Below are positions 3,785-16,290 of a DNA stretch of 64,000 nucleotides, in pieces (position 1 is the first letter of the stretch; every line of letters begins with the position of its first letter). A program made the position numbers and the translations under genes. Source of the stretch: Minisyncoccota bacterium (GTDB taxonomy: Bacteria; Patescibacteriota; Minisyncoccia; Phycocordibacterales; JABAAK01); contig OY764332.1 of assembly GCA_963668425.1 (NCBI GenBank), positions 188,943 to 252,942 of the forward strand. Reading direction: 5' to 3'. Under the pieces are notes generated by a model that saw only the letters and a list, made by a program, of their open reading frames with translations, did not search any database and was not told where the DNA came from.

Positions 3785-4011
3785 AAATATAATTAACGTA
3801 TAAAAGATAATAATGAAAATATCTGAACACAAAACACACACACCAGATATGTCTGTAGTGTACCAACATAAAATGCTTTATATTGCTTCCTATGGCGTAT
3901 TTTGTGTATAAGTCGTGGAAATATTAGAGCCCTTACTAGAATAGGGGAAGAAATCCTCAAACAAGTGGAAATATGCTGAAGGTGGGACGTATGTGGTGCT
4001 GTGTCGGGAGG

Positions 4012-4587
4012 TTATCCAAGCATTACCCCTTCCTGTTGTAGTACTGTCAATAGTGCTTGGAATACTTTTAAATGTAACTCCGCATCATATAGTGCTGAAT
4101 GTCGCTTTTCTTCTTCTTCTTCAATCCCCAATGCCTCCAATGTGCTACTCATCCCTGCCACACCCAATGCTGCCAGAGACAAGGTGGTGACATCCATCAT
4201 TCGGCGTGATAGTGGTAGTGCGGTATCATTCCGATAGGTGTCCCACAAACGCTCTAACATTATATAATCAAAATGCGCGTTTGCGGCGACGATGTGTAGT
4301 TCAATATCTTCAGCAATACCATACTGCTTCACGATTTCTTGCTCAAACTCTTTTAAGAAAACTTCTGGATTAACCCCATGTGTCTTTGCCTGTTCCATAC
4401 TGATGCCGTGTACCTCTTCTGCTGCACTATCCCATGAAAACCTCTCTGGCATATAGGTGATATTCCATTCTCGTGTGTTGACCGGCTGTATTTTTTCATC
4501 TAAAAATATTGCTCCACATTGAATCACTTGCGATGAGCAAAAATCTACGCCTGTTGATTCCACATCTAATGCTATAAATCTGTGCAT
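4012..4587 (-). CDS. DEDDh-type 3'-5' exonuclease (DnaQ/epsilon-like)
   Basis: Exo motifs are present: FIALDVESTG (DxE), NAHFDYIML (D) and HSALYDAE (H-x4-D). Start placed at the internal Met (MHRFIALDVE, 4587), which removes the overlap with the proS stop at 4592. Confidence 0.75.
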   Translation of the reverse strand: MHRFIALDVESTGVDFCSSQVIQCGAIFLDEKIQPVNTREWNITYMPERFSWDSAAEEVHGISMEQAKTHGVNPEVFLKEFEQEIVKQYGIAEDIELHIVAANAHFDYIMLERLWDTYRNDTALPLSRRMMDVTTLSLAALGVAGMSSTLEALGIEEEEEKRHSALYDAELHLKVFQALLTVLQQEGVMLG

Positions 4588-4591
4588 ATAT

Positions 4592-5845
4592 CTATGATAT
4601 AGCGTGTAGTAACCCTTCAACAACGGTATCCAGCATTTTTTTCTCGTCTGTCGCCCGGTCTTTGTATTCTATTTTTCCTTCTGCGCATGTTTTCTCTGAT
4701 ACTATCAATTGTTGCGGAATACCGACAATATCACTCTCAGCGAATTTTTCTCCGGCAGATATGTTTCGATCATCGTACAGCACTTCAATCTTTCGCTCGG
4801 TTAGCTGTGTGTACACATCATCTGCTGCCTTTGCTACTGTATCAGAATTTCCTAATGCAATAAGATGCACATCAAACGGCGCGATACTTGCGGGCAACAC
4901 CATCCCTGTATCTGATCCAACCATCTCAACCACAACTCCGAGCAGTCGTGCTGGGCCGATGCCATATGATCCCATATACACTGGCACTTGAGTACCCGTG
5001 CCGTCTGTATATAGTAATCCAAGCGCGTCAGAAAACCGCATTCCGAGTGTGAAAATATTCCCCACCTCACACGCAGGATGTTCCTCAAGCTCCTCCCGTT
5101 GCAATTCCAGTCGTGCAAGCACTTCATCTGTATACACTTCTTTATTTAAAGCAATCTTTTTACCTTTGTGTACATAAATAACATCCTCACCCGCAGGCAC
5201 TATGGTTTGAAACTCGTCACTGAATTCAGAAAACGCTCCTCCGCTTGCAAATGTCCGATAGGTATTTTTGCCGATACCAACCCGTTCAAACACGCGCAGA
5301 TATGCTTCCGCGCATTGTTCATAAAACACCTTGTGTTGCTCTTCATCAGTGCAAAAAGAGTATAAATCTTTCATAATAAATTCTCGTGTTCGCAAGATCC
5401 CGCTCTTTGCTCGCTCTTCATTACGAAATTTTGTTTGAAACTGATACAAATAAAATGGCACATCACGATATGAGTTGACATGCTGTCGTGCCAAATCAGT
5501 AATCGGCTCTTCGTGCGTCCATCCAAGCCCTAATTCACCGCCAACTCGTAGCTGTGTCCGAAACCACACCTCATCGGCATCACCCTTCCACCGTCCTGAC
5601 TGCTCCCACACTTCTGGATTTTGTAACCCGTTCAGCAGTACTTCCTGCCCACCGATGCTGTCCATTTCTTCACGAATAATTTTGATAATCTTATTTAATG
5701 ACCGTAATCCAAGCGGTAGAAAACTATACACTCCTGCCATTGCCTTGTGGATGTACCCTGCCCGTATCAGTAGCTGTGCATTCAGTGCCATCTCATCAAC
5801 TGGCACTTCTTTTCGCACCCGTGTCGCCAAAAATGATTGTCGCAT
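4592..5845 (-). CDS. proS: proline--tRNA ligase, bacterial-type core without the INS editing insertion
   Basis: MRQSFLATRVRKEVPVDEMALNAQLLIRAGYIHKAMAGVYSFLPLGLRSLNKI... is the typical ProRS N-terminus, and class II motifs and the anticodon-binding C-terminus are present. About 417 aa versus about 570 for INS-containing enzymes. Start taken at Met7 of the ORF. Confidence 0.9.
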   Translation of the reverse strand: MRQSFLATRVRKEVPVDEMALNAQLLIRAGYIHKAMAGVYSFLPLGLRSLNKIIKIIREEMDSIGGQEVLLNGLQNPEVWEQSGRWKGDADEVWFRTQLRVGGELGLGWTHEEPITDLARQHVNSYRDVPFYLYQFQTKFRNEERAKSGILRTREFIMKDLYSFCTDEEQHKVFYEQCAEAYLRVFERVGIGKNTYRTFASGGAFSEFSDEFQTIVPAGEDVIYVHKGKKIALNKEVYTDEVLARLELQREELEEHPACEVGNIFTLGMRFSDALGLLYTDGTGTQVPVYMGSYGIGPARLLGVVVEMVGSDTGMVLPASIAPFDVHLIALGNSDTVAKAADDVYTQLTERKIEVLYDDRNISAGEKFAESDIVGIPQQLIVSEKTCAEGKIEYKDRATDEKKMLDTVVEGLLHAIS

Positions 5846-13823: not shown

Positions 13824-14084
13824 TTATATTTTCTTGAGTGTAGTCTTATATCCAAAATAATCTTCTATCGCCTTCAGCATTCTTTTTGCCGATACAACAC
13901 TACCACTCATAATGTATTCGTCAGTGTTCCGTGATTCAAATACATCGTCAATAATAATATCAACCCCTTGTTTAATTTCTTCTATAATTACTTGCGATAA
14001 CAGATCACGCTCTTCCCGCCTAAAAGGGCTAGTCGCACATATAGTCATTGAAAATTTCTTTTCTAGTTTCTTTTTATACTCCAT
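13824..14084 (-). CDS. hypothetical small protein (86 aa)
   Basis: ORF only, with no recognisable motif. Part of the AT-rich island between aspS and tRNA-Ser. Confidence 0.35.
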   Translation of the reverse strand: MEYKKKLEKKFSMTICATSPFRREERDLLSQVIIEEIKQGVDIIIDDVFESRNTDEYIMSGSVVSAKRMLKAIEDYFGYKTTLKKI

Positions 14085-14118
14085 ATGCCTTCGCTTACTA
14101 TAATTTTACCCTGTCTTT

Positions 14119-14301
14119 TTAGAGTTTGCTGAGCACCTCTAACCAAATGCTTCCATTTTTTTCATCACTAAGCATATTCATTTTATCAATGCATTCTTTC
14201 ACTGTTTTACAACCATACTCTTTTTTCATCTCTTCCATAAAGGCATCTTTGTAATTTTTAACATGTAAGAAATATAGTAAAAGCGGAACTGCCTCCAGCA
14301 C
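14119..14301 (-). CDS. hypothetical small protein (60 aa, or 39 aa from the internal Met)
   Basis: ORF only. Divergent from the methyltransferase gene, 47 bp away. Confidence 0.25.
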   Translation of the reverse strand: MLEAVPLLLYFLHVKNYKDAFMEEMKKEYGCKTVKECIDKMNMLSDEKNGSIWLEVLSKL

Positions 14302-14347: not shown

Positions 14348-15208
14348 ATGACCAAAATGACAAGCACTGCCGGCAAGCAGAAAGTGTGTCGGGAAAGGAA
14401 GGTGTTGATAAATGAAGTGTTGTGTGGGCGGGCGGAAATTGTGTTGAATGATATCCCTAATAATGCGGTAGACATTGTTGTAACATCACCGCCGTACGAT
14501 GGTATCAGGGATTATAATGGCTTTGATCTTGATTTGCATGCAATTGGACGGGAAGTGTTCCGTGTTTTGAAGGATGGTGGTATTGCAGTAATGGTGATAC
14601 AAGACCAAACGAAAAATTTTGGGAAGACACTGACCTCTTTTAAGACAATTATAGACTGGTGCGACAATATCGGCTTTAAGTTGTTTGAGACGGCTATTTA
14701 TAGAAAACACGGGGCGGAAGGTGCGTGGTGGAATAAGCGGTTTCGTGTTGACCATGAATACATACCAATTTTTTTGAAAGGAGAAAGACCTGCTTTTTTT
14801 GATAAGGAGAGCTTAAAGATACCATCAAAGCATGCCGGCAAGACAATACGAGGTGGCGGGACGAGGTTGACCAACGGTAAGAGGATTGATACGCGACATA
14901 TAACAATCAACCCAACAAAATGTCGTGGTACTGTGTGGGAATACTTGACTGCTGGAGATGGCACACGATTGAAGCATAAACATCCTGCAACATTCCCTGA
15001 TAAATTACCGATTGATTTCATACAATGCTTTTGTCCGGAAGAAGGTGTTGTCTTGGATCCGATGTGTGGCAGTGGCACCACTCTCATGGCGGCAAAAATG
15101 TTGGGGAGGGACTATATAGGTGTAGATGTATCGCCAGAATATTGTGATTTATCTCGGAAACGATTGTTGGAAGAACTACCTAATCAAACACTCCGCTTTG
15201 AGGAATAG
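14348..15208 (+). CDS. site-specific DNA amino-methyltransferase, beta class (N4-cytosine or N6-adenine)
   Basis: Motif IV VVTSPPYDG lies near the N-terminus and the AdoMet motif I VLDPMCGSGTTLMAA lies near the C-terminus. The IV-to-I order defines the beta permutation, and SPPY is frequent in m4C enzymes. Confidence 0.85.
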   Translation: MTKMTSTAGKQKVCRERKVLINEVLCGRAEIVLNDIPNNAVDIVVTSPPYDGIRDYNGFDLDLHAIGREVFRVLKDGGIAVMVIQDQTKNFGKTLTSFKTIIDWCDNIGFKLFETAIYRKHGAEGAWWNKRFRVDHEYIPIFLKGERPAFFDKESLKIPSKHAGKTIRGGGTRLTNGKRIDTRHITINPTKCRGTVWEYLTAGDGTRLKHKHPATFPDKLPIDFIQCFCPEEGVVLDPMCGSGTTLMAAKMLGRDYIGVDVSPEYCDLSRKRLLEELPNQTLRFEE

Positions 15209-16154
15209 TGTACTCAACCCTGTTTGTTGCCGTTATTGCAAAAGAAATGGGATTTTTTGTTAATAATTCGTTTCTTCTCCTGAAACTCGTTGTGTTGTCT
15301 AAGACACTTTTGGAAAACTGTATGCATTCAAAATTGTCCCAACACCAGGACTGACTGTTGTATTCCCAACCTGTAAGATCAGATAGCATTTGTAAAATCC
15401 CTTCGCTTTTTTTGACCTCCTCCTTCTCTATATATGCTTGGTTATCACTTCTCACAATGTTTGCCGTCTCTCCGCCACCTCTCTCGGATATCTTTACTTT
15501 TTCTCTACCTCTTCCACCACCTATCTTCTTTATTTTACCGAATAGTTCTTTCATCAATTCCATACTTTCTGCTATAGGTGTGTGTTGTGTGAAAAATACA
15601 TCGTTCAATATGTCATTTCTTGTTGCTTGTAGGAAGTGAAACCAACTTAAACTATTTTCTGGGTATCCGAATATGTTCTTGAAGGTACCGTCGGCATACA
15701 GTAGCGGTGCAACAATACTTGGACTCTTCTCTAACTGCATGGCACTGCCGACAATCGCAATGAGCAGATGTATTGTTCCAAATGGGTATTTGTTTTGAAA
15801 GTCATTTTTAGCGTCAAATCCTCTTAGGTTGTTTGCGGAAATGCAGTTTTTAAAATTATCCCAATTTTCTGGAATCTCATTTTTGTTTGGCAGTAGCATG
15901 TGTTGCCCAACACTGCGTATATTTTTTCTGTACATCTCTACGTCAAGATACACAACAGAAGATGGATCTGTGTTTTTTTCTATTAGCAAAACTTTGCCGT
16001 CATACAATCCTTTTACTTTCCAGTTTAAGTGCTGAGACATGAAAAGTGCGCCTAACAATCCGTCGCAATCAGGGCTTATTACACAGCTTTCTTCTTTTGA
16101 GACAATCCATGGAAACTGTTGTATTATTTTTTGATAGTTAAGAGCATTATCCAT
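15180..16154 (-). CDS. uncharacterised 324-aa protein, candidate restriction partner of the adjacent methyltransferase
   Basis: Convergent with the MTase, with a 29-bp 3' overlap (15180-15208). Start moved to MDNALNYQK (16154) because the upstream 31 codons of the tracked ORF run into tRNA-Ser. No clear nuclease motif. VISPDCDGLLGALF...VVYLDVEM...VGQHMLL is loosely DHH-like by eye. Confidence 0.55.
   Translation of the reverse strand: MDNALNYQKIIQQFPWIVSKEESCVISPDCDGLLGALFMSQHLNWKVKGLYDGKVLLIEKNTDPSSVVYLDVEMYRKNIRSVGQHMLLPNKNEIPENWDNFKNCISANNLRGFDAKNDFQNKYPFGTIHLLIAIVGSAMQLEKSPSIVAPLLYADGTFKNIFGYPENSLSWFHFLQATRNDILNDVFFTQHTPIAESMELMKELFGKIKKIGGGRGREKVKISERGGGETANIVRSDNQAYIEKEEVKKSEGILQMLSDLTGWEYNSQSWCWDNFECIQFSKSVLDNTTSFRRRNELLTKNPISFAITATNRVEYTIPQSGVFD

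Positions 16155-16198: not shown

Positions 16199-16290
<92 letters not shown>

Follow-up and report, generated by a model that had tools for sequence, protein, structure and literature searches.

A candidate restriction endonuclease of putative DHH/RecJ-like fold, paired with a beta-class DNA methyltransferase at loci that avoid AGNCT

In restriction-modification systems of the PvuII, BamHI and Esp1396I type, the gene of a stand-alone beta-class methyltransferase with an SPPY motif is convergent with that of the endonuclease, a small helix-turn-helix (HTH) controller is encoded upstream of the nuclease, and the genes form a mobile two- or three-gene cassette whose palindromic target is avoided by the host; the endonucleases are of PD-(D/E)XK fold. 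The controller (C) protein serves as a device that delays expression of the toxic nuclease. Restriction enzymes are assigned in reviews to five folds only, namely PD-(D/E)XK, HNH, GIY-YIG, PLD and HALFPIPE (PMC2441816, PMC10273834), and 56 characterised enzymes were without a fold assignment in 2008 (PMC2441816). R.PabI (HALFPIPE) and R.BfiI (PLD) set the precedent for restriction enzymes of a fold other than PD-(D/E)XK, and PabI first came to notice as an ORF of unknown function that moved together with a methyltransferase gene (PMC1874622, PMC10273834). Neither enzyme depends on metal, PabI being a glycosylase and BfiI belonging to the PLD group (PMC2441816).

The DNA branch of the DHH superfamily consists of RecJ, archaeal RecJ2, RecJ-Cdc45, GAN and eukaryotic Cdc45, and a further group (NrnA, GdpP, PggH, family II pyrophosphatase and PPX1) acts on small substrates (nanoRNA, pAp, c-di-AMP and PPi) and carries a DHHA1/2 domain with a GGGH motif. 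Within the DNA branch, the RecJ enzymes act as exonucleases on single strands and Cdc45 has no activity. To our knowledge, no member of the RecJ/Cdc45 branch is methyltransferase-linked or sequence-specific, and the nucleases known from the DHH superfamily act as exonucleases or as phosphodiesterases of small substrates, none of them being a duplex endonuclease. A full-text literature search for restriction enzymes of DHH or RecJ-like type brought up none.

The window, i.e. the whole 64-kb stretch of DNA analysed here, carries a gene pair that resembles the PvuII/BamHI/Esp1396I type in its stand-alone beta-class SPPY methyltransferase, convergent with the candidate nuclease gene:
14348..15208, forward strand: cognate beta-class DNA methyltransferase gene, 286 aa (PF01555, PADLOC MTase_II)
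14486-14497, forward strand: methyltransferase SPPY motif IV (residue 47)
15056-15079, forward strand: methyltransferase motif I, DPMCGSGT (residue 237)
15180..15208, no strand assigned: convergent tail-to-tail overlap of the methyltransferase and candidate genes, 29 nt
15180..16154, reverse strand: candidate restriction endonuclease gene, 324 aa (assigned from the ORF, 220 homologues, the adjacent methyltransferase and an AlphaFold2 model)

The methyltransferase matched PF01555 with E 4.9e-37 and PADLOC MTase_II with 2e-42, and its motif order, with IV (SPPY) N-terminal to I (DPMCGSGT), is that of the beta class. The SPPY motif presumably denotes N4-cytosine methylation, and the protein is, judged by its motifs, probably an m4C enzyme.

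The candidate ORF is real and starts with the ATG at 16154. The longest possible ORF would begin with a GTG at 16247; this version was set aside because it reads through a tRNA-Ser(GGA) gene (16199-16290) and because its N-terminal extension is without conservation in homologues. The ORF gave zero matches to Pfam, NCBIfam, PADLOC and PHROGs models and to PDB sequences, the family profile gave none against the PDB, and tblastn gave none in annotated plasmids and phages. The 3' end of tRNA-Ser is not repeated in att-like form on either side of the cassette, and a promoter and terminator scan at the cassette yielded nothing above shuffled expectation. Two small ORFs at 13824-14301 were considered as system components and rejected, since homologues of them were absent from every locus compared. 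An HTH controller gene is absent beside the window copy of the pair, which in this respect differs from the PvuII/BamHI/Esp1396I type.

The 220 homologues, obtained by word-indexed search, are nearly all of 310-345 aa, and the source names shown for them are all 'hypothetical' or 'uncharacterized'. An exhaustive HMMER scan gave approximately 390 clusters at 50% identity, and 338 species, each represented by one scanned genome, encode a relative. The 80 fetched loci are scattered over bacteria and archaea (Patescibacteria, DPANN archaea, Methanobrevibacter, Chloroflexi, Planctomycetota, Bacteroidota, Ignavibacteria, Elusimicrobia, Rickettsiales and Chlorobi), mainly in the uncultivated small-genome lineages Patescibacteria and DPANN, and all fetched members come from metagenome-assembled genomes of uncultivated organisms or from metagenome contigs. 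The defence systems of uncultivated organisms are poorly annotated.

Within the window's clade, a tblastn search with the window methyltransferase placed an orthologous methyltransferase directly beside the candidate gene at 83 of 84 loci, and the sole locus without one is a 1.2-kb contig, so that the linkage holds at 83/83 informative loci. The two genes are convergent in 79 of these 83 pairs; in the others the methyltransferase lies upstream on the same strand (three) or downstream (one). A sequence-only reading of the locus had taken the convergent position overlapping the methyltransferase as that of a type II endonuclease, and the overlap in the window and the clade-wide counts agree with it. 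Identities ranged over 56-80% for the methyltransferase orthologues versus 36-75% for the candidate orthologues of the clade loci, the methyltransferase being, as is usual in restriction-modification pairs, better conserved than its nuclease partner. Flanking genes are unrelated from locus to locus; at L001-L003, for example, the relatives lie in unrelated neighbourhoods, each facing an N6_N4 methyltransferase tail-to-tail. The pair is a conserved, horizontally mobile cassette.

All ORFs of 85 loci were clustered in a search for recurrent genes. One gene besides the pair recurred, encoding an HTH_3 protein of approximately 73 aa (PF01381, E 1e-5), and the clustering returned no other third gene. 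In 27-32 of the 85 loci it directly precedes the candidate gene in the same orientation, with 14-48 nt between its end and the start of the aligned candidate region. By analogy, the arrangement is that of a classical controller (C) protein-R operon, and many relatives thus share the upstream controller of the PvuII/BamHI/Esp1396I type. We know of no C proteins with repair partners. Fusions also occur: such an HTH is joined to the candidate family in P0154, and a methyltransferase in P0192 (623 aa), where the family motifs are kept; a 641-aa ORF at L174 is hit by the methyltransferase profile as well as by that of the candidate family.

Avoidance was scored with maximal-order Markov expectations over the 512 strand-merged 5-mers, in a pooled carrier set of 85 loci (809 kb) and a control set of 80 loci from other clades of the candidate family. 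In the pooled carriers, AGCCT/AGGCT (AGSCT) was the most depleted of the 512 (observed 192 versus expected 703, O/E 0.27, z -19) and AGACT/AGTCT (AGWCT) the second most depleted (observed 423 versus expected 745, O/E 0.57, z -12), and these two pairs are exactly the four words of AGNCT. The corresponding O/E values in the control loci were 0.89 and 0.93. An O/E below 0.5 for AGSCT was found at 61 of 75 carrier loci versus 6 of 63 controls, and the depletion spans many phyla (observed versus expected, 1 versus 17 at L058, 0 versus 14.5 at L075 and 0 versus 10.7 at L040); a few carrier loci, e.g. L002, L051 and L078, are without it. The window holds 12 AGNCT sites versus 94.8 expected from the Markov model and 234 from base composition, and AGNCT is the only depleted pattern there among the 16 of the form XYNY'X', the next lowest O/E being 0.76. 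Analysis of 4- and 6-bp palindromes found no avoidance specific to the system, the signal appearing only with 5-mers.

Palindrome avoidance is expected where a restriction system is active, and not from an orphan methylase or from repair, and on this basis AGNCT is predicted as the likely recognition site; in some members the site may perhaps be AGSCT. The mobile cassette with a host-avoided palindromic target is a further likeness to the PvuII/BamHI/Esp1396I type. No relevant paper mentioning the AGNCT motif was found in the literature search, the scope of which lay outside REBASE, and we know of no described specificity for it; it is possibly a new one.

An AlphaFold2 model of the candidate, built with a 33-sequence alignment, had a pLDDT of 91.9 and a pTM of 0.92 and resembles a DHH domain in its three-dimensional fold. 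The parts of the protein, as read from the model and from the conservation, are as follows:
15540..16154, reverse strand: N-terminal DHH/RecJ-like domain, proposed to be catalytic (approximately residues 1-205)
16059..16076, reverse strand: motif I equivalent, S-P-D29-C-D31-G, at the end of strand 1 (strand 23-26) and followed by a helix
15933..15950, reverse strand: motif II equivalent, Y-L-D71-V-E73-M, at the end of a beta strand (strand 68-70)
15900..15914, reverse strand: degenerate motif III, S81-V-G83-Q-H85 (strand 80-82)
15768..15845, reverse strand: conserved block C-I-S-A-N108-N...K122-Y-P-F-G-T-I-H129
15681..15704, reverse strand: motif IV equivalent, L-L-Y-A-D155-G-T-F, placed from motif order
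15183..15539, reverse strand: C-terminal alpha/beta domain, proposed for DNA recognition (approximately residues 206-324)
15468-15527, reverse strand: Gly/Arg-rich loop in the C-terminal domain (residues 210-229)

In Foldseek searches the best PDB match of the model was RecJ-Cdc45, at a weak E of 2e-3, and the best viral (BFVD) matches were RecJ and DHH phosphohydrolases, with E 0.01 or worse. No classical restriction fold was among the top 60 structural matches, and neither fold nor profile matches to PD-(D/E)XK, HNH, GIY-YIG, PLD or HALFPIPE were obtained for the candidate. The sequence-only reading had likewise found no convincing motif of the first four of these folds, and had instead likened peptide strings, all of which are present in the candidate ORF, to DHH motifs I-III. 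A cryptic PD-(D/E)XK site (P28-D29 ... D71-x-E73) was considered and rejected because the fold searches return no such structure.

Across 33 close relatives, 39 positions are invariant; in 78 sequences down to 21% identity, D31, G49, D71, H85, K122 and P124 are invariant, and D29, S81, G83, N108, Y123, D155, N167 and S304 are at least 90% conserved. The conserved residues follow the DHH motif order and its secondary-structure context. Motifs I and II of the earlier comparison hold, being conserved and in register with RecJ by hhalign, and position 73 in motif II is D or E in 74/74 distant relatives scored. Motif III does not hold as a strict D-H-H: it reads G83-Q84-H85 in the window and G-H-H in most relatives (H at position 84 in 72/74 distant relatives), Asp is never present, and H85 alone is invariant. 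The conserved block with N108, K122 and H129, which reads NPN...KYPxGTxH in relatives, resembles the (I/V)NP motif after DHH in RecJ-like proteins. D155 would be the motif IV Asp, to judge from motif order and from its resemblance to the 'DTG.F' of DHH and the 'vaD' of RecJ proteins.

With HMMER, the window protein gave no match to the Pfam DHH profile, and PF01368 was touched by 1 of 78 family members (E 0.07). The candidate family was aligned by hhalign to 13 RecJ-like/DHH proteins assembled from plasmid records, giving a score of 23.4 (P 0.018, probability 2.6%) against 13.8 +/- 2.4 for shuffled columns, and the real score was reached by 1 of 120 shuffles. The alignment was in register, motif I falling on the RecJ DxDaDG, motif II on the RecJ Asp, and the NP motifs on each other. 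Sequence-profile support for a DHH assignment is thus marginal.

The C-terminal domain, which is conserved at W263, W270, K282, S304, E314 and T316 in close relatives and has weak ferredoxin-like structural matches at most, is proposed as the DNA-recognition part. Its Gly/Arg-rich loop has the lowest confidence in the model (pLDDT 79-86) and is conserved among close relatives only. No match to a DHHA1 or DHHA2 domain with the GGGH motif, as carried by the NrnA/GdpP group, was found in the candidate or in family members; the loop was considered as an equivalent of GGGH and rejected because it is poorly conserved family-wide and lies elsewhere in the protein. From the RecJ/Cdc45 branch the candidate differs by the lack of DHHA1 and OB domains, by Gly in place of the motif III Asp and by the absence of HMMER-level similarity. 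PabI and BfiI have unrelated folds and chemistry, the candidate being predicted as a metal-dependent phosphodiesterase, and the logic by which PabI was discovered is the same as that applied here.

Linkage to a methyltransferase was looser outside the window's clade. In a set of 80 loci from a metagenome scan seeded with a distant subfamily, 29 had an adjacent beta-class methyltransferase, whose motif is DPPF, DPPY or SPPY and which in most cases precedes the relative in the same orientation. At approximately 19 loci, each with over 1 kb of sequence to either side, no methyltransferase was adjacent; their neighbours include AstE/AspA, 5-FTHF cyclo-ligase, MacB/FtsX, an esterase, POR, a histidine kinase, a TIR protein and a Fic protein. 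The AstE/AspA neighbour is common to eight solitary loci, which suggests that the members there are vertically inherited. Solitary members keep all putative catalytic residues and have housekeeping neighbours; therefore the fold is not intrinsically tied to restriction and the wider family is not exclusively restriction-linked. An unprotected family member is evidently tolerated, and those without a partner may act as nucleases of a modification-dependent or a housekeeping kind, or as enzymes paired in trans with a distant methyltransferase. The solitary clades weaken a family-wide argument from toxicity and leave the clade-specific evidence from linkage and avoidance unaffected.

The candidate very probably supplies the nuclease of a mobile restriction-modification pair. 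We consider it probable that the pair is a type II system, in which a diverged DHH/RecJ metal-centre endonuclease would cut unmethylated AGNCT and the beta-class methyltransferase would protect the host. We lean, with some reserve, towards the further claim that a diverged DHH/RecJ metal phosphodiesterase acting as an AGNCT-specific duplex endonuclease constitutes a sixth catalytic class of restriction endonuclease. The sequence-only reading had allowed for an uncharacterised restriction fold, and this gains support from the linkage, the C gene, the AGNCT avoidance and the structural matches to RecJ/DHH proteins.

In the proposed mechanism, the methyltransferase would modify the palindrome 5'-AGNCT-3' in host DNA, and the 324-aa protein, probably as a homodimer, would cut AGNCT when unmethylated. 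The N-terminal domain would adopt a diverged DHH/RecJ-type phosphoesterase fold with a divalent-metal centre, probably of two Mg2+ or Mn2+ ions, for which D29 and D31 (motif I), D71 and E73 (motif II), H85 (the DHH remnant) and D155 (motif IV) are the putative ligands. N108, K122 and H129 would probably hold the scissile phosphate, and the C-terminal alpha/beta domain with its basic Gly/Arg loop would probably read the sequence. Of this scheme, the activity as an endonuclease, its need for metal, the dimer, the part played by the C-terminal domain and the identity of the methylated base are inferred.

The low hhalign probability, the missing HMMER match, the Asp-to-Gly change in motif III, the Gln in place of its first His in the window and the lack of DHHA1 count against the preferred reading. 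In one rival explanation, which we regard as unlikely overall, the protein is the restriction endonuclease and its likeness to DHH is merely topological, reflecting a generic Rossmann-like alpha/beta sheet; the chemistry could then be that of a new non-DHH metal site or a non-hydrolytic mechanism as in PabI. Slightly less likely again is a DHH phosphoesterase or nuclease that cooperates with the methyltransferase without restricting foreign DNA, for instance a nuclease repairing methylation damage, an exonuclease or an accessory enzyme for oligonucleotide processing. Vsr-Dcm is a case of a repair nuclease coupled to a methylase; many distant relatives are solitary, in housekeeping neighbourhoods and with the active site kept, and characterised DHH nucleases are, as a matter of general knowledge, exonucleases or phosphodiesterases. 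This explanation is, however, opposed by the C-protein gene upstream in relatives, by the strong and specific avoidance of AGNCT in carriers and by the patchy occurrence of the cassette across domains of life in unrelated contexts.

We give very little weight to the idea that the protein is some other defence effector that travels with the methyltransferase, for instance a nuclease dependent on modification or an enzyme degrading nucleotides or signals, with the true restriction partner elsewhere or absent. The fold family does include phosphodiesterases of cyclic dinucleotides and pAp, and TIR or Fic genes adjoin some distant relatives. However, the C protein alone recurs with the pair, the protein has no PADLOC match, a methyl-dependent nuclease beside its own methylase would be suicidal, and the methyltransferase fusions argue for a common DNA substrate.

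Type II restriction-modification is a known kind of system, and the candidate's nuclease fold is unreported for restriction enzymes in the papers found. Standard tools such as PADLOC and Pfam would score the methyltransferase as an orphan. Each of the earlier new restriction folds taught a new chemistry of DNA cleavage and supplied new reagents, and an AGNCT specificity may enlarge the enzyme toolbox. If the preferred reading of a DHH/RecJ-type type II endonuclease is true, the DHH fold would join PD-(D/E)XK, HNH, GIY-YIG, PLD and HALFPIPE as a catalytic class, and a superfamily of exonucleases and small-molecule phosphodiesterases would be able to make site-specific duplex cuts; the solitary relatives may be a new family of housekeeping or modification-dependent nucleases.

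The pattern AGNCT occurs 12 times in window 1-64000, against about 95 sites by Markov expectation and 234 by base composition, and is the only one of the 16 XYNY'X' patterns to be depleted there; on account of this scarcity it was taken as the predicted recognition site.

AGNCT sites: window 1341, 13842, 14653, 19310, 23889, 26871, 32267, 32393, 44857, 48873, 60990 and 61017

Two further sequences are 4-5-fold rarer than expected over the same 64 000 nt, TCGA with 37 sites against an expected 166 and GGCC with 23 against 98, and this under-representation suggests that other restriction systems, present or past, with TaqI-like and HaeIII-like specificities have acted in this genome.

The candidate endonuclease gene and its convergent methyltransferase gene are flanked in the window by the following.

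16199-16290, minus strand: tRNA-Ser(GGA)
13824-14084, minus strand: small ORF, 86 aa, between aspS and the methyltransferase gene
14119-14301, minus strand: small ORF, 60 aa, between aspS and the methyltransferase gene

The tRNA ends 44 nt upstream of the start codon of the candidate gene, and the two may therefore be co-transcribed. An att-like repeat of the tRNA-Ser end was sought flanking the window cassette and none was found, nor does this copy of the cassette carry a gene for the small HTH controller (C protein). The two small ORFs gave no match in any library searched or in any related locus, and for this reason are possibly not genes.

The window-clade locus L002 is part of a 2.2-Mb contig. 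The methyltransferase paired with the family member there carries an additional domain, and the genes close to it give the neighbourhood the look of a small defence island.

L002 6947-8158: partner methyltransferase with additional Peptidase_S24 (LexA/CI-like) domain
L002 5464-5949: second N6_N4 methyltransferase ORF, truncated
L002 9284-11131: GmrSD type IV enzyme gene

Among the distant relatives, a clade of solitary members (L139, L145, L146, L148, L159, L164, L168 and L176) lacks an adjacent methyltransferase gene, and each of the eight is convergent with an AstE/AspA-type gene (in L145, 2811-3776 with its neighbour at 3794-4723). All putative catalytic residues are retained in this clade, whose members look like vertically inherited chromosomal genes, not mobile cassettes.

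Other distant members, with a beta-class methyltransferase close by, repeatedly adjoin a protein of about 400 aa, which may be a third component of a three-gene variant. Two of its copies, those of L098 and L144, were scanned against Pfam and neither matched.

Copies of the approximately 400-aa protein:
L098 1197-2426
L122 2387-3481
L144 973-2190
L152 2767-3954
L174 4960-6123
L177 2016-3260

A beta-class methyltransferase and the family domain were found in one chain twice, in the homologous protein P0192 (623 aa, with SPPY and a G-H-H motif III) and in an ORF of L174 (3014-4939, 641 aa). If real rather than assembly artefacts, these fusions would be type IIC-like enzymes.
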